Part shown: piece by piece, positions 3,595-62,754 of the stretch
How the letters are laid out: every line of letters starts with the position of its first letter
How positions within the stretch are numbered: position 1 is the first letter of the stretch
From: Escherichia virus TH47
DNA length: 64,000 nt
Strand: one strand, 5' to 3'
Sequence record: MT446416.1
The notes under the pieces: model-generated
Databases searched by the model: none
Told to the model about the DNA's origin: nothing
Seen by the model: only the letters and a program-made list of their open reading frames with translations
Program-made: the position numbers and the translations under genes

Positions 3595-3865
3595 TTTTCT
3601 TCTTCTGATCCTCTTCGTTATCAGTTAAGTAAGAGTTCATGTCAAATACACATGGGTCTTGCTCGTCATAGGAGGTTTTTTCTTTTTGTCCCTGACGAAT
3701 CTCTAATTCAGCATAGCACTGATTCAGAACGGTTTGCATGTTACCAACAATCATATCACTCATACCTGCTGCACGAGCAGACGTAATACGCATCGATTGT
3801 TCGTTAATTTTCAATTGTAACTCTTTCTCGGTCATGGTTGATGGATCAAAAAATGGATTGAACAT
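3554..3865 (-). CDS. hypothetical protein
   Basis: 103-aa ORF; 41-nt overlap with downstream gene; start may be an internal Met. Confidence 0.35.
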   Translation of the reverse strand: MFNPFFDPSTMTEKELQLKINEQSMRITSARAAGMSDMIVGNMQTVLNQCYAELEIRQGQKEKTSYDEQDPCVFDMNSYLTDNEEDQKKKNESTRKQIYKSQW

Positions 3866-3866
3866 A

Positions 3867-6263
3867 TCATCCTCCTAAATTGCTGTTTTGTAATGAAATC
3901 AAAAATGTATCATGAACGTAGTTTTCGAATTCATGTGCAAAGAATCCAAATTCAACTCCTGTGATTTCAAACTCAACACCAACCATCTTACCATGTTCAT
4001 TGTTCTGAAGTAAAGTGTTAAAGAATGCTTCACCCTTCCCTGGTGCACAGTATGCAACTGGAATGATTGGCATGAATTTCTTTTCAACACCATTTTCTTC
4101 GTATGGGTGATTCATGAAGCGAGGAACAGTGTCAAGCATCTCAACAGAAATTCCAGGTATAGCATCTACATACAAACCACGGTTTTGTAAATCAGTTGGG
4201 TCTTTCACAAGGTTAGTTGTGTCTTCGCCAATTGCTGCAAAAATATTTTGACGCAAGCCAAATATTTCACCGAGTGTCCCGTTATCAATTTGCGTGTAAC
4301 TTCTTGGATTCTTAGAAACCGACACCAATGAACCTGCGGGTAAAACTTCACGGTATAATATATCATACTGCAAGTTACCTTGGTTGTCAAGTGCTGACAT
4401 TACTTTATAGTTGCCCATTACCATTCTAAATTTTCCATCAGGAATAGTTGCACCAGTTTGGTTTATGATATTTTCCCTAAGTACTTTTTTAATATCACTC
4501 AACGTAGTGTAAGTATAGTTCTGACTCAAAAAGTTTTCTTTTAATAGAATACGTGGTACTTTTTGTAATCCGTATCTATCATCTGATTGTCGATGGAAAG
4601 CTTGTTTTGTAAATGATGGTGTACTAATACACTTAAACCATTCACGTTCAAAATAAACAGAAGGTACAATATGTGCACTTAAGTAGTTTTGACCAAAACC
4701 ACGTACAATTTTCAGTTTAAATAACTTGGACGCAACACCACCTTCAGTGTCATATGCTTTGATGTTGAATTCTAATTTTATATCATCATTTGCACTGAAA
4801 TCTAAACTTTTTGCATATGCAGTTCCAACCAAGAACCCATCTGCTGTGAGGTCCAAACCATATTTGCGAATATCATCAGGTCCACCATCTAATACATAAG
4901 ATACCTGATTAGTACTGGTAGTTTGTATTTGTGGATAAGTACTGTGACCGAAATATTCACCCACATGAATACTACCTAAATCACTATCAGTTGTGAAGTC
5001 TATTGAGTTTTCTTCTTCTGCGTTCACTAGAACACGGAACATCTTCTCTACACCTATAATATTCTCACCTAAGCTTGAATCATAATATCCTAAATCAATC
5101 CAATCTGAACTTTTAAACACTGGCTTTGTTTCACCTAGATCATATTCACCAGCGATTACATATGGATATACAACGTTATCTTTCAACTGATACAAATGAT
5201 TAGGTAAAGGTTTATCGCCATCAGCGTATATACCATCTACATTGTCTGGACATACCCACATTTGATATGCTTTAAAACGTTGGTTTATAGCGAAGCGATC
5301 AGTATCATAACTATATGTACTCAAAATATCAACAATTTCAACTTTAAAATATGCATCACATGCATCAGAGTCATATAGGAATGTTTGCAGAAATTGTCCA
5401 TTTGGGTTGAAAACCAATCCTGAATCAAGTAACTCACCAGAGCTAGTTTGAATATTAACCTTAATTTCTTTATTAATACCAAATACAGGCCATATATTAT
5501 CAATAGGACGTAGGATTGCATAATCATCCGTGATGTGGCGAGTGGGGACTTCTGCTGGGGTCATATCTAGTAGACGATACGCAGGATAAAATACTCTAGG
5601 AGATAGATCAGTTGATGTATCAGTTCCTAAAATAAATGGGCGGCGACGTCCAAATCCCTGTACAAATAAAGTACTATTAGAACCATATTCAATATCACCA
5701 ATACAATATAATTTATCATCATCACCGATTTCGATTCCAGGAGTAACCCATACTTCCTGACTATCATATTCAATTGTTACTTCATCTGAACCAATTTCAC
5801 CACTAGGAGAAATGTTACCATAGTACATAACATTTACTGCTTGAAGATAGAAGTTAATCTGTTCAGAGTTGTTAAATGTACCATCATCTTTACAATACAA
5901 TTTAATAAAATAAACATCTTCGGTATTAGTGCTTGCCGATAGATCAAATTGAGTTTTATCAATTTTACATTTGTGCTTACCATTAATCAACTTGTTACCA
6001 GTAATACCTGATGATATAGGTATTAGATTAGATTCATCATTACCAACATACACTGCGTAGTGATCTTCTGGTTGAAATACTGCACCGGAACTGTCCAAAC
6101 CCTGAATAGTTAGAATCATCTCTAAGTATTCGTTTTCATTAAGTATGTAACTATCATCCGTTGTGGTTTCTTTATTGATACTCAAACGCACAAGAATGTC
6201 TTGTCCTTCTTGTATATATCGAGCATCGGCTTTTATATCCCATCTAGGGGTAAAAGTTGTCAT
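3867..6263 (-). CDS. large hypothetical protein, probable late (virion) gene
   Basis: About 798 aa from ATG 6263 (GGAG 7 nt upstream); TATAAATA late-type motif 39 nt upstream; hairpin terminator before that. Confidence 0.45.
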   Translation of the reverse strand: MTTFTPRWDIKADARYIQEGQDILVRLSINKETTTDDSYILNENEYLEMILTIQGLDSSGAVFQPEDHYAVYVGNDESNLIPISSGITGNKLINGKHKCKIDKTQFDLSASTNTEDVYFIKLYCKDDGTFNNSEQINFYLQAVNVMYYGNISPSGEIGSDEVTIEYDSQEVWVTPGIEIGDDDKLYCIGDIEYGSNSTLFVQGFGRRRPFILGTDTSTDLSPRVFYPAYRLLDMTPAEVPTRHITDDYAILRPIDNIWPVFGINKEIKVNIQTSSGELLDSGLVFNPNGQFLQTFLYDSDACDAYFKVEIVDILSTYSYDTDRFAINQRFKAYQMWVCPDNVDGIYADGDKPLPNHLYQLKDNVVYPYVIAGEYDLGETKPVFKSSDWIDLGYYDSSLGENIIGVEKMFRVLVNAEEENSIDFTTDSDLGSIHVGEYFGHSTYPQIQTTSTNQVSYVLDGGPDDIRKYGLDLTADGFLVGTAYAKSLDFSANDDIKLEFNIKAYDTEGGVASKLFKLKIVRGFGQNYLSAHIVPSVYFEREWFKCISTPSFTKQAFHRQSDDRYGLQKVPRILLKENFLSQNYTYTTLSDIKKVLRENIINQTGATIPDGKFRMVMGNYKVMSALDNQGNLQYDILYREVLPAGSLVSVSKNPRSYTQIDNGTLGEIFGLRQNIFAAIGEDTTNLVKDPTDLQNRGLYVDAIPGISVEMLDTVPRFMNHPYEENGVEKKFMPIIPVAYCAPGKGEAFFNTLLQNNEHGKMVGVEFEITGVEFGFFAHEFENYVHDTFLISLQNSNLGG

Positions 6264-39821: not shown

Positions 39822-40541
39822 TTATGATATATTTTCTAGAACAATTTGAATATGATCTTCATCGTATTTTATTCTCAACAATTTAATATTATTTTGATTA
39901 CAATAATCATTCTTTATTTTATCATTTTTCTGAGTTAGTTTTAGTTTTTCTTTACCACCCCAACCACATGATTCAAAATGTTGAAGACCATCATATTCAA
40001 TACACATATTAAACGTTGGAAGATAAAAATCAAATCTCAAAGGAAGTATATTTTTACAATCATCAAACGTTTTTTCCATTACACACGATACATTTTTCAT
40101 ATCCAAAATGTTACGTATGTCTTTAACTGCCTTTGACATTTTATCAGATATTGCACATTTAATACAACCCTTTCCTGATAAATGGTCATTTGCTCTTTGT
40201 AAAAAATCACCATGTATTTTACAAGTTATAGTGAGTTTTTGTTTGTTGTTTTTGCCATATACAACTTTATCATAGTTATATCTATCACTATGTATTTTAT
40301 AAGATTCCTCAATGAAGGTTTCAGTTGTATGTTTGGAACGTCTTGAACATTTAGTACATCCAGCACCTCTGTAATGGACTTTAACAAATTGCTCATAATC
40401 ACCATGTATTTTACAAGTTACAATAACTTTTGAATTTACATTCTCATATACTGTTTTATCATATAAGAATATATCACCATAAATTGATTTTGATTTTTCT
40501 ATAAATTGTTCTGTTGTTTGCTTTTTATTATTTGCACCCAT
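39822..40541 (-). CDS. putative homing endonuclease (tandem zinc-ribbons + restriction-endonuclease-like domain)
   Basis: Two CKIHGD...G-GC-KC modules, then FDFYLP...IEYDGLQHF...K...LLRI; start ATG 40541 with AGGTGA RBS. Confidence 0.5.
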   Translation of the reverse strand: MGANNKKQTTEQFIEKSKSIYGDIFLYDKTVYENVNSKVIVTCKIHGDYEQFVKVHYRGAGCTKCSRRSKHTTETFIEESYKIHSDRYNYDKVVYGKNNKQKLTITCKIHGDFLQRANDHLSGKGCIKCAISDKMSKAVKDIRNILDMKNVSCVMEKTFDDCKNILPLRFDFYLPTFNMCIEYDGLQHFESCGWGGKEKLKLTQKNDKIKNDYCNQNNIKLLRIKYDEDHIQIVLENIS

Positions 40542-40554
40542 AACCGTATCACCT

Positions 40555-40590
40555 AACAAAAAAGACAGTTTTATATAAAACTGTCTTTTA
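40555..40590 (-). terminator. hairpin terminator between uvsY-like gene and homing endonuclease gene
   Basis: Perfect 10-bp stem aaagacagtt/aactgtcttt with 8-nt loop; A-run on plus gives U-run on minus transcript. Confidence 0.5.
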
Positions 40591-56268: not shown

Positions 56269-56787
56269 TTAAACAGGTTTAACAGGGAACGAAAACTTCT
56301 TCTTACTAAATTCAGATGTTGTTAGAGATGATAGCTCAAGAACATATGCTTTCAACTTAGGAAACAGTTCTATTTCATAATCAGTTGCTACCTCAAGATC
56401 TATCGCCATCTTAATGTTATTCAACTCATTAATTGCTACAGTTCTTAATTCTTGGTGCTCAGATGATAGACGTTTGATCTTTTCATCAGTAGATTCAACA
56501 TAATCAGAAATTTTACTTCCATCATAGATTTTACCAACTACTTCATCTTCATCTCCATCATGCTCCAACTCAGAAACACTGTATCCATACGGTACTAACA
56601 ATGTTACATCATATGATGCTTGTGCAATATAACCATCGTCAGAGTACTGAACTTTTAAAGTATCTTGTCTGAATTCGTTTTGACAATCATACCAGTCAAT
56701 ACCCTCATCTGACAATAGATAAAGAACATTATCTCCATGTTTTTTTTCTACTGGTATATATTTTTTGAAATTTGTATACGTTTTCAT
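56269..56787 (-). CDS. hypothetical protein (positional candidate tail-fibre assembly factor)
   Basis: 172-aa acidic protein immediately downstream of the tail-fibre-like gene; assignment by position only. Confidence 0.3.
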   Translation of the reverse strand: MKTYTNFKKYIPVEKKHGDNVLYLLSDEGIDWYDCQNEFRQDTLKVQYSDDGYIAQASYDVTLLVPYGYSVSELEHDGDEDEVVGKIYDGSKISDYVESTDEKIKRLSSEHQELRTVAINELNNIKMAIDLEVATDYEIELFPKLKAYVLELSSLTTSEFSKKKFSFPVKPV

Positions 56788-56788
56788 A

Positions 56789-58417
56789 TTAAGACTCCAC
56801 TACTACGTTAGTCCATACACCATTTACAAGTTTTTGTGTATATCTCCAACTCAAACCTTCAACGTGTGTACCTGAACTACCATTTACTGAAATAAACAAC
56901 CCATCAAGTGTAGCACCTTCAGGTACATAGTTCCAAGAAGAATCAGGAACACTTCGCGTAGTTGTTCTTTTACTTAAACGAACATCTTGTACAGCACCTA
57001 GTGTTAAAGTTACGTTACCGTTTACATCAGCGTTGTTACCGTTAATAGATCTTACGATGTTTTTACTGGCAACAGTTGCAGTGTTTCCAGAAATAGACAA
57101 TGATGCACCAGTAACTGATGGGGCATAAAGTACACCAGATGAGTTAATTGTAACTTCCGAACCACCATTACTTCTCAAACGTAATGTATTTGTTGATGAA
57201 CTATGATAAATTGCTGCACGTTCAGTAGTTCCTGCCGCGTTACGGAAGTAAAGTACCAAAGATGTGTCGTCTGAACGAATTGTTGCACTGTTAGCAATAG
57301 TCAATGAACCAGTCATTACATCACCAGTTTTCAGTACATAACGGGTGTTTGCAACTTTTTCACTCAATGCAACGTTAGACTCAGCAATGTTATATAAGTA
57401 TGCCACATTAAAGTGTGGTACGTCAATATTGCTAATTCCGTGGGTATGTGCTTGTCCACTACCAACGGTATTGGTTGAACCACTGAATCTATGCACGTGA
57501 TCAGGTGCTTCGTTAATGTTATTAATTACAGTTGGAATACCATTATCTCTACTCGATGTTATTGCATTTAGACCACTACGGTCATTACCTTTTAGTGCTT
57601 GGCTATGACCATGACGACCAGCAGCACCAGTAGTTCCACTGAAACTAAATGAGTGCGGTGGAAGTTGATCAATTGATATCGCAGTACCACTAATTGATGC
57701 ACTACTTGCAATCACACTATCAGTTTTAGTTACGCCTGATGTGGTAATGCCTTTCAAGTATGCTTCTTGGTTAAGATTTGGAACTTGTTTAGTGATTGTA
57801 CCATTTTCACCAACCCATTGCCACCACATTCCATCAGCAAAACACCAACCATCAGAAGTTTTCCACGGAGAACCTTGTGAACCATTACGACCACTTTGAC
57901 CATTAGTTGCTCCAGACATCTGTTCACGAATACTAGCAACAGTTTGTCCAGAAGTCAATGAGTACTGGGTAATTGCACCAGGCTTCATTGAAGTGTAAAG
58001 ACCTGTTGGTCCAGTACCGCTACTTGATTGAGTAGGGAATACGATATTTAAATTCGTACCACTAATGCTCGCACTTGGGACAGCACTACTACTATATGTT
58101 ACTGTTTCAACTTTTAAATTCAATTTACGGTTCACTTCATCGAGTGAAATACGGATTGGTTCAAGAATTGTATCAGTATCATATACTGCAATCCAACTTG
58201 TACCGTTGTGGTATTTTAACACCAACTCATTTCTATCAAATACCATAGCACCTTGCTCACCTGCTGGCAATGCCTGTACGGGTAAAATGACAGAAGATGA
58301 ATTAAAACGAATAGGTCTTGGATTAGTTGGTGTACCACCAAGCACTATTAGTTCTAAAGATCCATTAGCACCAGTACTAGTCATAGTATCCAGTGGGTTA
58401 TTAAAACTTATGCTCAT
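56789..58417 (-). CDS. tail fibre-like protein
   Basis: 542 aa, Ser/Thr/Gly/Asn-rich, His-x-His motifs (HTHGISN), GAMVFDRNELVLKYHNGTSWIAV collar-like segment. Confidence 0.45.
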   Translation of the reverse strand: MSISFNNPLDTMTSTGANGSLELIVLGGTPTNPRPIRFNSSSVILPVQALPAGEQGAMVFDRNELVLKYHNGTSWIAVYDTDTILEPIRISLDEVNRKLNLKVETVTYSSSAVPSASISGTNLNIVFPTQSSSGTGPTGLYTSMKPGAITQYSLTSGQTVASIREQMSGATNGQSGRNGSQGSPWKTSDGWCFADGMWWQWVGENGTITKQVPNLNQEAYLKGITTSGVTKTDSVIASSASISGTAISIDQLPPHSFSFSGTTGAAGRHGHSQALKGNDRSGLNAITSSRDNGIPTVINNINEAPDHVHRFSGSTNTVGSGQAHTHGISNIDVPHFNVAYLYNIAESNVALSEKVANTRYVLKTGDVMTGSLTIANSATIRSDDTSLVLYFRNAAGTTERAAIYHSSSTNTLRLRSNGGSEVTINSSGVLYAPSVTGASLSISGNTATVASKNIVRSINGNNADVNGNVTLTLGAVQDVRLSKRTTTRSVPDSSWNYVPEGATLDGLFISVNGSSGTHVEGLSWRYTQKLVNGVWTNVVVES

Positions 58418-58458
58418 GTATAAATCCCTTTAATGATTAATATATACTATATTTATTA

Positions 58459-58782
58459 CTATAGCAAGTCGTTTTCCATATCGTCAAGAACAGAATCGAC
58501 GATGTTCGCTGCTATCTTCTTAGGCATCTTGAACCACTCGGTGTTAGGTTGCCTTACTGCGTTCATTTGTTTTAGTCTTTTGTGAATTTCTTTCTCTGCT
58601 AAACGTGCATCTTCAAAGTGTACTTCATGGTATACCACAAAATCTCTAAAAGGTGTAGCAGTTTGATATGTCCTTAAACGTTCTGTCATTTCAGATTTAC
58701 TGGTAAATCCTATCTTAACATAATCAGGCCATGCATCATTTACTATAACATAACATATCTGTGACATAGAAAATATCTCCAT
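58459..58782 (-). CDS. T5orf172 (GIY-YIG-like) domain protein
   Basis: ICYVIVNDAWPDYVKIGFT...RLRTY...PFRDFVVYHEV...EWFKM matches the T5orf172 pattern. Confidence 0.6.
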   Translation of the reverse strand: MEIFSMSQICYVIVNDAWPDYVKIGFTSKSEMTERLRTYQTATPFRDFVVYHEVHFEDARLAEKEIHKRLKQMNAVRQPNTEWFKMPKKIAANIVDSVLDDMENDLL

Positions 58783-58806
58783 CAGTAATATGAAGATATT
58801 TATTAA

Positions 58807-59166
58807 TCAAGTAATTCGGAAATTTACCCCAGCATCAATTAGGCGTTGGAATGGGTTTTGTGGCTCGAATTCAGAAGGAGTTTTTGAAATGTTCAGTACT
58901 GGAGCATCAGCATGTAACTTTGACATACGTTCTTTGTACTTATCTAAGTATTCTTCATACAACATATCTTCAGTGTTACTATTAAGTATGTCTTCGATAA
59001 ATGAATCAATACTATAGTCCAGTCTATCATCATTATAATACAAAGTTTCACTAGCTTCATCATAACCAACTAAAGTTCCGTATGGAACATTAATCTCAAT
59101 TTTTGAGTACTGACTCTTTAAGTACTCTTCTTTCTTAAAAATGTATACAGTTAACATCCGTGTCAA
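58807..59166 (-). CDS. hypothetical protein
   Basis: 119-aa ORF between the two T5orf172-type genes. Confidence 0.35.
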   Translation of the reverse strand: MTRMLTVYIFKKEEYLKSQYSKIEINVPYGTLVGYDEASETLYYNDDRLDYSIDSFIEDILNSNTEDMLYEEYLDKYKERMSKLHADAPVLNISKTPSEFEPQNPFQRLIDAGVNFRIT

Positions 59167-59180
59167 CTCCTTATGGTTGT

Positions 59181-60179
59181 TTACTTAGTTTTCCATTCTT
59201 TTATCATGGTTAGTACTAAATCCAAATCTTCTTCATTGAAAGTTTCAGTGTATCCATCTGGAAAATCTTCTTTTTCAACAACTTTATTAGTTATAGTACC
59301 TTTTATTTTTTGTTCGAGATCTTGTGCTTCTCTTCGTGTTTCAAAGTCCTCAATTAACAAAACATCGTGTTCAGTATGAGCATAATGTTTTTGTTGACTA
59401 ATTCTACGGTTGATATCATTAGTTACACCCAATTTATAAAATACACCTTTTGTTGGGTGAGTTATTTTTTGTACATATAAAGTTGATGGCTCACGCATAG
59501 TACCTTCACTTTCGTTACATACTGGACAATGTTCTCTATCAGTTTTTCTGAAATTCGCTAGGGTTTTATGTATTTTTACATCTTTATGTAGTGTGCATCC
59601 AAAAACACATTCAGTATGGTGATAATCATAAGTTTCGTCATACTGAAAATCATCATAGGTGTACTTGTCACCATGAATTTTCTTCAACTCTTTCGTTATA
59701 TCATTAGCATCTTTTCGTTTGGAAGAAATCGTTCGTTCTTTACCACACTCATAACATCCACTAAACCTACCTAAAAATTCATCAAATGATAAGACGAAAT
59801 GCTTCTTATGTTTTTTACAATTAAATTCAACATCGGATTTTTTCTTACCTATAAATTTAACTACTTGTACGAATTCCCAAGGTTTGTTCTCATTTGCTAT
59901 CCTAGTTAAACATGCGTGTTTGTATTGGCTGGCAGTTTTTGGGACACTAGTTCCATTTTGTTGTTTCATTATACCACAATGTTGACATTTTTTTCTCGAT
60001 GAAAAGTTGTCTATACTACATGACAATATAGAAGACTTACAATCCCAGCATGTGTATGAAAAATTACTTTTGGCATTTTTAAAATTAATTATTTTATGAA
60101 ATACAATGTTTAAGTTATTAGTTTTTATTATGTTAAGTATCTTATCCACATAATGTTGTTCATCTAATTTTGAAGCCAT
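59181..60179 (-). CDS. putative homing endonuclease (zinc-ribbons + T5orf172-like domain)
   Basis: Cys/His modules and KIHGDKYTY motif parallel the 39822 gene; C-terminal GVFYKLGVTNDINRR...GYTETF is T5orf172-like. Confidence 0.5.
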   Translation of the reverse strand: MASKLDEQHYVDKILNIIKTNNLNIVFHKIINFKNAKSNFSYTCWDCKSSILSCSIDNFSSRKKCQHCGIMKQQNGTSVPKTASQYKHACLTRIANENKPWEFVQVVKFIGKKKSDVEFNCKKHKKHFVLSFDEFLGRFSGCYECGKERTISSKRKDANDITKELKKIHGDKYTYDDFQYDETYDYHHTECVFGCTLHKDVKIHKTLANFRKTDREHCPVCNESEGTMREPSTLYVQKITHPTKGVFYKLGVTNDINRRISQQKHYAHTEHDVLLIEDFETRREAQDLEQKIKGTITNKVVEKEDFPDGYTETFNEEDLDLVLTMIKEWKTK

Positions 60180-60244
60180 AATTAAAATCCTCGGTTACAA
60201 TAAAATAATAATATCACAAAATGATGCACACCACAAGTATATTT

Positions 60245-60273
60245 ACAAAAGAAAAGGGACTCCGAAGAGTCCC
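60245..60273 (-). terminator. Rho-independent terminator after the major capsid gene (UUCG loop)
   Basis: Perfect 7-bp stem gggactc/gagtccc with cgaa loop (UUCG on transcript), then a U-run. Confidence 0.6.
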
Positions 60274-60317
60274 TATTGTTTTTAATTTCTTGATTAAATC
60301 TTTTAAATCTATTACAA

Positions 60318-61493
60318 TTACATGAAAGTAACGTTTTTGATAGCGATTTTGCTGTAGTAGTCAGCAGCATTACCAAGAGATGAAGTACTGTCGGTTAGCT
60401 GAACGTAGCCATAGCGTGTTAAAAATGTCGTGACTAGCTCACCAGTGTTAGGGTCCATTACAGTACCGGAAGCCATTAGTGGGATGTATGGGCAATAGAA
60501 CACACCAGCATCAGTTTCAGCATTACCTTTATAACCAATCAAAATGTCCTCGACATCGCTGGCATACGTGTCTACAAAAATACGCATGGTGCTGTTTAGA
60601 GTACCAACAAATTTAACGTTAGTTGGAGCTTCGAAAGTACCTTCAGTAGTACGTGCAAAACTAGAAGTAGTTGCAGACTGTAGAATGGTTAGAGCGGTTG
60701 GAGAAACAACAGCCCAGTTCGCAGCACCACGTTTGGTACGACGAGCAACTTCGTTCGCTTGACGGTTGATTAGGGTAGCTAGAGCAGCGTGCTCGTCACC
60801 AACGAAGGTCGCAACACCAGTAACTTTAGATTGGTCATAAGTTACAGCAGCAGCACCAGGTAGTGCACGTAGACGGCTTAGTAGCTCTTGGTCGATTTCA
60901 ACGGTAACTTCTTGAGCGATTGCAGCCATTAGTTCAGCTTCAACGTCGATACCATGTTGGGATTGTGCATCTTGTGCAGATTCAACAGTCCAACGTGCAG
61001 ATAGACGACGAGATTTCGCTTCAACAGTTTCACGTAGAATACGGATGTTAACGCGACGACCCATAGTACCTTCTAGTTGACTAGTAGGAGCAGCTTGTGG
61101 GTTGCTGTTGTCTGCGTTTAGGTCACCAGTATAAGACTTAGCGATTTTGTATGGAGAAAGCATTTCTTCACCAGCGATAACACCAGGAGCGTTGTCAGCA
61201 TATTGAACACGTAGGGTGTGGATCTGACCAACTGGGCCAGTCATTGGCTGAACACCGATGATTTCGTTAGCGATTACGGTTGGCATAACACGACGCATAA
61301 TTGGTAGAATCACTTTGTTTAGAGTAGCGATGTTACCAGCGGTGGTTGCACCAGAAGTAGCAGATTCGTTTAGCATTAGTTTACGATGGTTATCAAGTAC
61401 GGTTTCCATTACGGACTTACGAGTACCTTGTAGACCTTCAACTAGTTTCTCTTTAACTGCTACCCATTTGGATTCATTTAGTAGTTGTGACAT
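60318..61493 (-). CDS. gp23: major capsid protein (T4 gp23-like)
   Basis: GVQPM motif, VEAKSRRLSARW and GYKGNAETDAGVFYCPYIPL match T4 gp23 blocks. Confidence 0.9.
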   Translation of the reverse strand: MSQLLNESKWVAVKEKLVEGLQGTRKSVMETVLDNHRKLMLNESATSGATTAGNIATLNKVILPIMRRVMPTVIANEIIGVQPMTGPVGQIHTLRVQYADNAPGVIAGEEMLSPYKIAKSYTGDLNADNSNPQAAPTSQLEGTMGRRVNIRILRETVEAKSRRLSARWTVESAQDAQSQHGIDVEAELMAAIAQEVTVEIDQELLSRLRALPGAAAVTYDQSKVTGVATFVGDEHAALATLINRQANEVARRTKRGAANWAVVSPTALTILQSATTSSFARTTEGTFEAPTNVKFVGTLNSTMRIFVDTYASDVEDILIGYKGNAETDAGVFYCPYIPLMASGTVMDPNTGELVTTFLTRYGYVQLTDSTSSLGNAADYYSKIAIKNVTFM

Positions 61494-61537: not shown

Positions 61538-61545
61538 TATTTATA
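61538..61545 (-). promoter_or_regulatory. T4-late-type promoter TATAAATA upstream of gp23
   Basis: Minus-strand CTATAAATAATATCATA 45 nt upstream of ATG; T4 late consensus is TATAAATA. Confidence 0.5.
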
Positions 61546-62746: not shown

Positions 62747-62754
62747 TATTTATA
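62747..62754 (-). promoter_or_regulatory. T4-late-type promoter TATAAATA upstream of gp22
   Basis: Minus-strand AAAATATAAATATTTG about 50 nt upstream of ATG. Confidence 0.4.

Follow-up and report, generated by a model that had tools for sequence, protein, structure and literature searches.

Between the major capsid gene gp23 and a tail-fibre gene of Escherichia virus TH47 (sequence record MT446416.1; the window analysed here is the whole stretch of 64,000 nucleotides, nt) lie two genes that encode a T5orf172 domain, a member of the GIY-YIG nuclease clan. We propose, with a probability of roughly 0.78, that these genes are of two unrelated kinds: a gene of 332 amino acids (aa), which comparison with related phages suggests to be a free-standing homing endonuclease gene sitting in a recurrently invaded slot, and a 102-aa gene, which appears to be a fixed core nuclease gene. 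For the 332-aa gene this proposal is based on its polymorphism, its site specificity, its domain make-up, its predicted fold and the mosaic found in its flank. An initial annotation of this DNA had described the segment 58459-60179 as mobile-nuclease or selfish-element content. That description suits the 332-aa gene, which is present or absent and turns over between relatives; it does not suit the 102-aa gene, which is a syntenic core gene, and the segment is not one insertion. Two genes had been counted in the segment, where a third, of 116 aa, lies between them.

The window phage is an Asteriusvirus-like (121Q/PBECO4) jumbo coliphage. When a 6-kilobase (kb) stretch around the locus was searched, 72 phage records matched, the best of them at ~97-98% identity (vB_Ec-M-J, Ecwhy_1, WPEC3, fEgEco12 and CMSTMSU), and the 121Q/PBECO4 group at ~87%. 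We then considered 14 related loci over the interval from the capsid-gene terminator to the ATG of the 116-aa gene. gp23 and both small genes are present in 14/14, as is the tail-fibre gene in a variable form, and within the segment only the cassette that carries the 332-aa gene differs between relatives. In fEgEco12, CMSTMSU and PBECO4 this slot is empty and reduced to a spacer of ~40-55 base pairs (bp). A 300-368-aa T5orf172 gene with DUF4379/DUF723-type Zn modules, called here type A, occupies it in 121Q (gp604), vB_Ec-M-J, phAPEC6, BF17, Turkey3, Ecwhy_1, EC.P1 and Salmonella phage Munch. The allele of the window, type B, is shared among the 14 loci by SHEFM2K (86% aa identity) and JNE01 (77%) only, and type A and type B proteins are no more than 26-37% identical. 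Finally, UE-S1 carries at this place (3655-5313 of the UE-S1 locus) an unrelated 552-aa gene, type C, with DUF7487 and an MTES_1575 restriction-endonuclease-like domain and without T5orf172; the tail of its product looks GNAT-like. Judged from locus length, ph0011 may have the same type C occupant, and the length of the match spans suggests further empty sites in four Salmonella SD phages. Other public assemblies yielded type B homologues on six further contigs, always in the order capsid gene, endonuclease gene, 116-aa gene, 102-aa gene, so that type B is found intact and in the same slot in all eight other loci (SHEFM2K, JNE01 and the six contigs). Multi-genome-alignment identity bins were unreliable inside the endonuclease gene, where non-homologous occupants are force-aligned, and pairwise blastn and protein alignments were used instead.

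The cassette has precise borders, and its flanks are 97-100% identical between the window and phages with other slot states. Upstream, the border is the last base of the terminator U-tract, homology to the empty-site phages stopping at ~60246; downstream, it is the base preceding the ATG of the 116-aa gene. Direct and inverted repeats were checked at both borders and neither target-site duplications, for which the initial annotation had proposed a check, nor terminal inverted repeats were found there, which suggests that the cassette moves by recombination and not by transposition. Every occupant carries its own promoter-like sequence right after the terminator: TTGACA-N17-TATAAT in the type A phages vB_Ec-M-J and BF17, TTTACA-N17-TATAAT in 121Q, and an extended -10 element TG-n-TATTAT that is conserved in all three type B alleles (window, SHEFM2K and JNE01).

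The domain make-up given for the 332-aa protein in the initial annotation, Cys/His modules followed by a C-terminal T5orf172 domain, was borne out, as was the assignment of both genes to this family, each scoring above the Pfam cut-off. The C-terminal domain matches Pfam T5orf172 (PF10544, GIY-YIG clan; residues 235-329, E=1.3e-5, 26.1 bits for a cut-off of 20), and the protein matches PHROG 681 'endonuclease' (E=4e-40). The domain is preceded by three Cys/His clusters with conserved ligands (C44/C47...C65/C68; C121/H124...C142/C145; C191/C195/H198...C218/C221). Every type A and type B protein in the alignment keeps the motif positions Y235, Y248-K-L-G251, R258/R259 and E312; the Asn of the motif is not obvious in the 332-aa protein. 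From the motif alignment, the Tyr, Tyr-Gly, Arg and Glu residues of both T5orf172 proteins would hold catalytic roles, and structure prediction confirmed a GIY-YIG-like nuclease fold for both. These two proteins are linked only through the Pfam family: a profile-profile comparison of the 332-aa with the 102-aa protein was not significant (E=0.38), and the idea that they are directly related was rejected on this ground. The best annotated distant match of the 332-aa protein is tcgB of phage ICP1 (E=2e-11; 89% of the length aligned, at 24.5% identity).

Among five type B alleles, all with intact open reading frames (ORFs), the nuclease domain is the most conserved part of the protein (90-99% identity), and Zn module 2 is only 52-55% identical with its metal ligands retained. 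Such a pattern fits a diversifying DNA-reading region placed on a constrained catalytic domain, as is described for the family (PMC10448857). The low figure for module 2 comes from the window itself (residues 117-147, 59739-59831), which is an outlier against four other, mutually similar type B alleles.

The intact ORFs, the conserved nuclease domain and the putative promoter proper to the 332-aa gene would also be expected if the protein were mainly a weapon, that is, a domesticated nuclease directed at co-infecting phages or satellites through interference competition or marker exclusion and kept for the benefit of the phage. Precedents exist: Odn of ICP1 is a T5orf172 nuclease used in counter-defence (PMC9040626), and the intron endonuclease of PhiPA3 is reported to mediate competition between jumbo phages (abstract of PMC11620839). 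We nevertheless regard this explanation as unlikely, because the slot behaves as it should if its genes were selfish and dispensable: several viable relatives do without any occupant, and unrelated occupants replace one another. Moreover, such a role is compatible with homing, since one cut yields both effects.

Further evidence for homing comes from the neighbouring capsid gene. A sequence discontinuity at the border, another feature that had been considered in the initial annotation, was found: it is sharp and lies in the adjoining 3' end of gp23. When the window is compared with seven phages of the same clade, 1-5 differences are observed in the first 893 nt of gp23 and 27-44 in the last 283 nt (binomial p 2e-13 to 4e-25 for the clustering). 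Most of the latter fall in third codon positions and none alters the protein; the capsid protein is identical between the window and the six clade members with clean sequence, and Turkey3 has one substitution, outside the tract. Nucleotide diversity (pi) within the clade reaches ~0.10 at 60200-60600, falls to 0.002 at 60600, does not exceed 0.011 over the remainder of gp23 and ranges from 0.000 to 0.015 in the two small genes (102 aa and 116 aa). Over 19 loci of E. coli phages, the last 300 nt of gp23 contain 73 variable columns, and the last 60 residues of the protein are invariant. The variant blocks of the tract are common to different genomes and occupant types, in differing combinations. 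For the tract of the window, the best match in the phage collection is only 90% identical, an Erwinia phage being little worse at 84.5%. The window has both the outlier Zn module 2 and a private gp23 3' haplotype, and the reading module and its target may co-vary.

Elevated diversity of host genes beside homing elements is a documented co-conversion effect (PMC2988022), which is also the subject of the abstract of 10.1101/092585. The gp23 tract looks as would be expected if breaks next to a homing element had been repaired, with co-conversion, many times over (PMC2988022), and we read it as a probable co-conversion or target-site footprint of homing endonuclease activity. Another hypothesis would be that the mosaic has nothing to do with the endonuclease genes and only marks where head and tail-fibre modules are joined by general recombination. 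Mosaicism is indeed seen in the neighbouring tail-fibre genes as well, and no site of the tract is fixed in an occupant-specific way. Yet the tract abuts the slot and stops abruptly ~280 bp into the gene, diversity is near zero on both sides of it, including the 116-aa and 102-aa genes that separate it from the tail fibre, and the documented co-conversion effect predicts such diversity, all of which makes a mere junction quite improbable.

In sum, the 332-aa gene reads as a free-standing homing endonuclease gene because of its presence/absence and replacement, its single slot, its GIY-YIG-like domain and the sharp discontinuity at the gp23 end. We propose the following mechanism. Transcription of the gene would start at a host-type extended -10 promoter of its own, which closely follows the terminator of the late capsid gene. 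The three Zn-ribbon-like modules of the protein would read a DNA site in genomes that lack the allele, most probably located in the short spacer or within ~300 bp of the end of the capsid gene, and the C-terminal GIY-YIG-type domain would cut this site. In a mixed infection, the break would be repaired from the endonuclease-carrying genome, whereby the cassette would be copied and a short stretch of the gp23 3' end converted. Repeated rounds of this process by at least three occupant families could then have produced the synonymous mosaic.

The small T5orf172 gene behaves differently. Its ORF (58459-58782) had been given as 107 aa; the match to T5orf172 holds (E=3e-13, 50.6 bits for a cut-off of 20; also MUG113, E=1.1e-12), and the gene probably starts at the second ATG, at 58767, since a GGAG lies 9 nt upstream of it and this start is annotated in most relatives, which gives 102 aa. 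The 102-aa homologues form 25 clusters (63-100% identity), and Y6, K18-I19-G20, R30, E77 and N88 are invariant in 20 aligned sequences of this type. The gene lies between capsid and tail-fibre genes in Salmonella phage Munch, in Serratia phage BF, where a large endonuclease gene is missing, and in Xanthomonas phage XaC1. At 68-77% identity across genera it is about as conserved as the prohead protease: between the window and XaC1, identity is 68% for the 102-aa protein, 64% for the prohead protease, 58% for the scaffold, 86% for the capsid protein and 22% for the 116-aa protein. It is present and syntenic in every relative examined, where a homing gene would be sporadic, and its flanks have no excess diversity. 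These comparisons mark the 102-aa gene as part of the fixed core of Rak2/121Q-like jumbo phages and not as a homing endonuclease gene. Of the two things that the initial annotation had named together as speaking against its reading, conserved presence is thus observed, and a structural role is not indicated: the three homologous products of phAPEC6, gp222-224, are absent from the 62 virion proteins detected by mass spectrometry.

The 102-aa protein has a confidently predicted GIY-YIG-like fold. It looks catalytically competent, judging from its motif residues, and is devoid of a DNA-recognition module; therefore it most likely acts on DNA structure or in bulk and not at a specific sequence, by analogy with Slx1, the UPF0213 proteins and T4 endonuclease II (EndoII). 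The latter is a stand-alone GIY-YIG nuclease. Other stand-alone GIY-YIG nucleases offer themselves for comparison, such as the Slx1 catalytic domain and the UPF0213 proteins EF2693 and BH0048, with the difference that the 102-aa protein has no significant sequence similarity to any solved structure (no match of its profile to the Protein Data Bank, PDB, sequences).

The 116-aa gene, listed as an ORF of 119 aa from a TTG (58807-59166), probably starts at the ATG at 59157, which is preferred because of an AAGGAG ribosome-binding site (RBS) and because it is the annotated start in the relatives with intact annotation here. Its product belongs to PHROG 15724 and has no Pfam or NCBIfam match. Homologues occupy the same position in Munch, Serratia BF and XaC1 (22-34% identity), and the family comprises 23 representative clusters in 1.84 billion proteins, almost all of 120-170 aa. 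The gene is a fixed neighbour outside the mobile cassette. It evolves much faster than its T5orf172 neighbour and its family is lineage-restricted; among the close relatives aligned, the protein has an invariant C-terminal NPFQRLID motif.

One could wonder whether the 102-aa gene is a decaying homing endonuclease remnant that has lost its DNA-binding half, the 116-aa gene being perhaps the split-off half. The order of the two genes mimics a layout with N-terminal binding and C-terminal nuclease regions, and the 102-aa gene adjoins an active slot. This is very unlikely given that the E. coli-phage and Xanthomonas-phage proteins are 68% identical and the catalytic residues invariant, and given the absence of any Cys/His motif or sign of nuclease-domain fusion among the 23 representative clusters of the 116-aa family; the idea of two halves of an old endonuclease was rejected for the latter reasons.

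Upstream of the 102-aa gene, an RNA hairpin (58771-58801) holds the GGAG RBS of this gene within its 3' arm; where the window has its single G.U pair, the 121Q clade has G-C. A late-promoter-like motif, AATAAATA, overlaps the 5' arm; it matches the T4 late promoter in 7 of 8 positions, and such motifs are no more numerous than by chance. The arrangement resembles that of T4 I-TevI, segB and mobE, in which the RBS is sequestered and only late transcripts free it (PMC2988022). By analogy, the 102-aa gene may be translated late, gated by its hairpin.

The initial annotation had also described the segment as bracketed by hairpins. On the gp23 side this is correct: the UUCG terminator after gp23 is real (AGGGACTC-TTCG-GAGTCCCT followed by TTTCTTTT, 60274-60255 on the minus strand) and is kept in every E. 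coli-phage relative compared. On the other side, the repeat at 58428-58464 is AT-rich and only 76% complementary, and we rejected it as a bracketing hairpin. That the whole segment with both T5orf172 genes is one hairpin-bracketed mobile or selfish insertion, as their adjacency, their common family and the AT-richness of the segment relative to gp23 could suggest, is hardly credible: nothing but the cassette differs from one relative to another, every Asteriusvirus-like phage compared has the 102-aa and 116-aa genes in synteny, as do Munch, Serratia BF and XaC1, diversity around these two genes is ~0 and the left hairpin is weak. Base composition has no power to separate the cassette from the fixed small genes, GC being 0.30-0.36 for both alike.

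Several observations weigh against the interpretation of the locus as a homing endonuclease gene beside a fixed nuclease gene. The Zn modules of the 332-aa protein remain under the Pfam cut-offs (CapR 19.5 for 24.2, DUF723 15.5 for 20.9, and module 3 without a match), and its structure model is poor overall (predicted local distance difference test, pLDDT, 53.8), the part with the Zn modules being of low confidence. For the 102-aa protein, a Foldseek search against the PDB was not significant (E>0.2) although GIY-YIG proteins ranked first. The TGnTATTAT element of the window was not called by a consensus promoter scan, and the hairpin of the 102-aa gene folds at -13.3 kcal/mol with a weak z of -1.76. 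In the gp23 tract, no nucleotide is fixed in the carriers of type A, of type B or of an empty site and absent elsewhere; hence no 'immunity' allele or target can be assigned in it. There is no sign of a recent transfer into the window genome, and this idea was rejected: pairwise blastn across the cassette gives 86.9% nt identity with SHEFM2K, which equals the divergence of the backbone (~87%), and the gp23 3' haplotype has no match above 90%. Lastly, a 2023 survey states that homing was at that time without experimental demonstration for the putative T5orf172 homing endonucleases of ICP1 (PMC10448857).

The weak CapR homology of Zn module 1 (E=0.0011 on the isolated module, under the cut-off) calls to mind a further possibility, namely that the 332-aa protein no longer acts as a nuclease and, like CapR, binds DNA to adjust the expression of the capsid gene. 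CapR, which represses the capsid operon of ICP1, is related to the T5orf172 homing endonucleases and has been domesticated (PMC8096241). Such a regulator is highly improbable. CapR has no nuclease domain, whereas the 332-aa protein keeps one as its most conserved part, the motif positions being filled by Tyr, Tyr, Arg and Glu; the position of the gene is downstream of the capsid gene and not at its promoter, and the slot can be empty.

A parallel can be drawn between the 332-aa homing endonuclease candidate and several known systems. T5orf172 genes with repeated Zn-finger modules are proposed as homing endonuclease genes in ICP1 and many phages, and the capsid gene is found in 31% of T5orf172 homing-gene neighbourhoods (PMC10448857). 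In ICP1, the capsid module has tcgA and tcgB on either side (PMC9040626). Like the 332-aa gene, these Gp121/Gp130-type genes are free-standing, vary between isolates, encode a C-terminal T5orf172 domain after repeated Zn-finger modules and lie at the capsid-module edge (PMC10448857, PMC9040626, PMC8096241). They differ in that tcgB is only ~25% identical and belongs to a 125-kb phage of another lineage, as against 350 kb for an Asteriusvirus-like phage, in that the Zn modules of the window do not reach the CapR and DUF723 cut-offs, and in that the slot of the window is shared with two other occupant families and empty alleles. Another parallel is T4 segD of the Seg family, a GIY-YIG-superfamily gene directly after gp23 (site 23/24) for which an intronless homing model holds; free-standing endonucleases are known to cut hundreds of bp from their own gene (PMC2988022). 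Seg proteins, however, have a canonical N-terminal GIY-YIG domain and a C-terminal DNA-binding region, an order that is reversed in the 332-aa protein of the T5orf172 subfamily, and segD, which is listed as 'activity not determined', runs antisense to the genes around it, whereas the 332-aa gene is co-oriented with a putative promoter of its own. Different, unrelated endonuclease genes at one slot have been seen where SegH/Hef replace mobC/mobE in T4-related phages (Sandegren et al. 2005, as summarised in PMC2988022) and in the HNH turnover of the ICP1 tape-measure introns (PMC10448857); these concern other genes and sites, and the slot described here has three occupant classes and empty alleles at the 3' end of the capsid gene. 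Within the clade, 121Q (NC_025447) has an orthologue of the 102-aa gene in gp606, 'GIY-YIG nuclease family protein' (90% aa identity), and in the slot of the 332-aa gene gp604, 'endonuclease', which is a type A occupant of 365 aa with DUF4379/DUF723 modules and 29% identity to the 332-aa protein. Neither the slot nor the capsid-gene mosaic is described in the fEgEco12 genome paper, the ICP1 survey (PMC10448857) or the results of a full-text literature search on homing in Asteriusvirus. We regard the 332-aa gene as a new allele of a selfish element of known kind, for which the comparative evidence is unusually clear.

One could go further and imagine the last ~280 bp of gp23 as a shared battlefield of at least three endonuclease families, in which phages evade cuts through silent changes of the target that leave the protein as it is, and the 102-aa protein as a domesticated descendant that performs essential late DNA processing, for example Slx1-like branch cutting before packaging, under the control of its hairpin. 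As a whole, this scenario is speculative and rather doubtful.

Table 1. Features of the gp23/tail-fibre locus (window coordinates).
Feature	Coordinates	Strand	Evidence or remark
Tail fibre	56789-58417	-	PHROG 13229
102-aa stand-alone T5orf172 / GIY-YIG-like nuclease gene (candidate core gene)	58459-58767	-	Pfam match, relatives
12-bp RNA hairpin with the small-gene RBS in its 3' arm	58771-58801	-	Inverted repeat, 92% complementary
116-aa gene	58807-59157	-	PHROG 15724
Variable cassette (promoter, 332-aa gene, 3' tail), 1,088 bp	59158-60245	-	Borders compared with fEgEco12, PBECO4, type A carriers and type C carrier
332-aa T5orf172 gene, type B	59181-60179	-	Pfam and PHROG matches
T5orf172 / GIY-YIG-like nuclease domain, residues 235-329 of the 332-aa protein	59193-59477	-	
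Cys/His modules of the 332-aa gene	59970-60062, 59739-59831, 59511-59621	-	
GAGGA ribosome-binding site of the 332-aa gene	60188-60192	-	
Putative extended -10 promoter TG-A-TATTAT of the 332-aa gene	60208-60216	-	Read from the sequence
gp23 intrinsic terminator, GGGACTC-UUCG-GAGUCCC and U-tract	60246-60274	-	Terminator scan and inverted-repeat search
Hypervariable, synonymous-only mosaic tract, gp23 3' end	60340-60600	-	Comparison with related phages
Major capsid protein, gp23-like	60318-61493	-	Pfam Gp23 E=9.5e-90; PHROG 138; conserved neighbour of the slot

All genes of the locus are on the minus strand (Table 1), transcribed in the order prohead protease and scaffold, gp23, 332-aa gene, 116/119-aa gene, 102/107-aa gene, tail fibre, tail-fibre assembly protein and DNA polymerase. 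Five terminator-like sites were found in the scanned region for 0.7 expected. Exact T4-type late promoter motifs (TATAAATA) occur on the minus strand at 61538-61545 and 62747-62754, where they precede the start codons of the capsid and scaffold genes by 45-48 nt; their total in the window, 5, does not exceed chance (7.5 expected). The tail-fibre module (56269-58417) is swapped among close relatives: the window has a 542-aa fibre and a 172-aa assembly protein, and in Turkey3 and several metagenome contigs the assembly gene is missing and the fibre, of 569-572 aa, has a Gp53-like C-terminus.

Elsewhere in the window, a second free-standing endonuclease-like gene of ~240 aa is observed at 39822-40559 on the minus strand, between DnaQ-like exonuclease and UvsY-like genes. 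In its product, two Zn modules that resemble those of the type A slot occupants (phmmer E down to 1e-35, against EC.P1) are joined to a different C-terminal domain, with weak DUF2726/DUF5889 matches and a restriction-endonuclease-like motif. Among the relatives listed or counted, it is found in the window and UE-S1 only, and 35 others lack exactly ~770 bp at this place.

These results have practical consequences for the study of these phages. Neither phylogenetic nor PCR markers for them can safely be placed in the 3' end of gp23, and a 'T5orf172' annotation alone cannot tell a selfish gene from a fixed core nuclease. The window phage or SHEFM2K, on the one side, and fEgEco12 or PBECO4, on the other, are ready donor/recipient pairs for a first homing test of an enzyme of the T5orf172 family. 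Above all, the locus would be a clean natural example of homing endonuclease turnover, with three unrelated occupants and empty alleles among otherwise nearly identical genomes, and with a footprint limited to synonymous sites in a gene that ranks among the most conserved and most highly expressed of phages.

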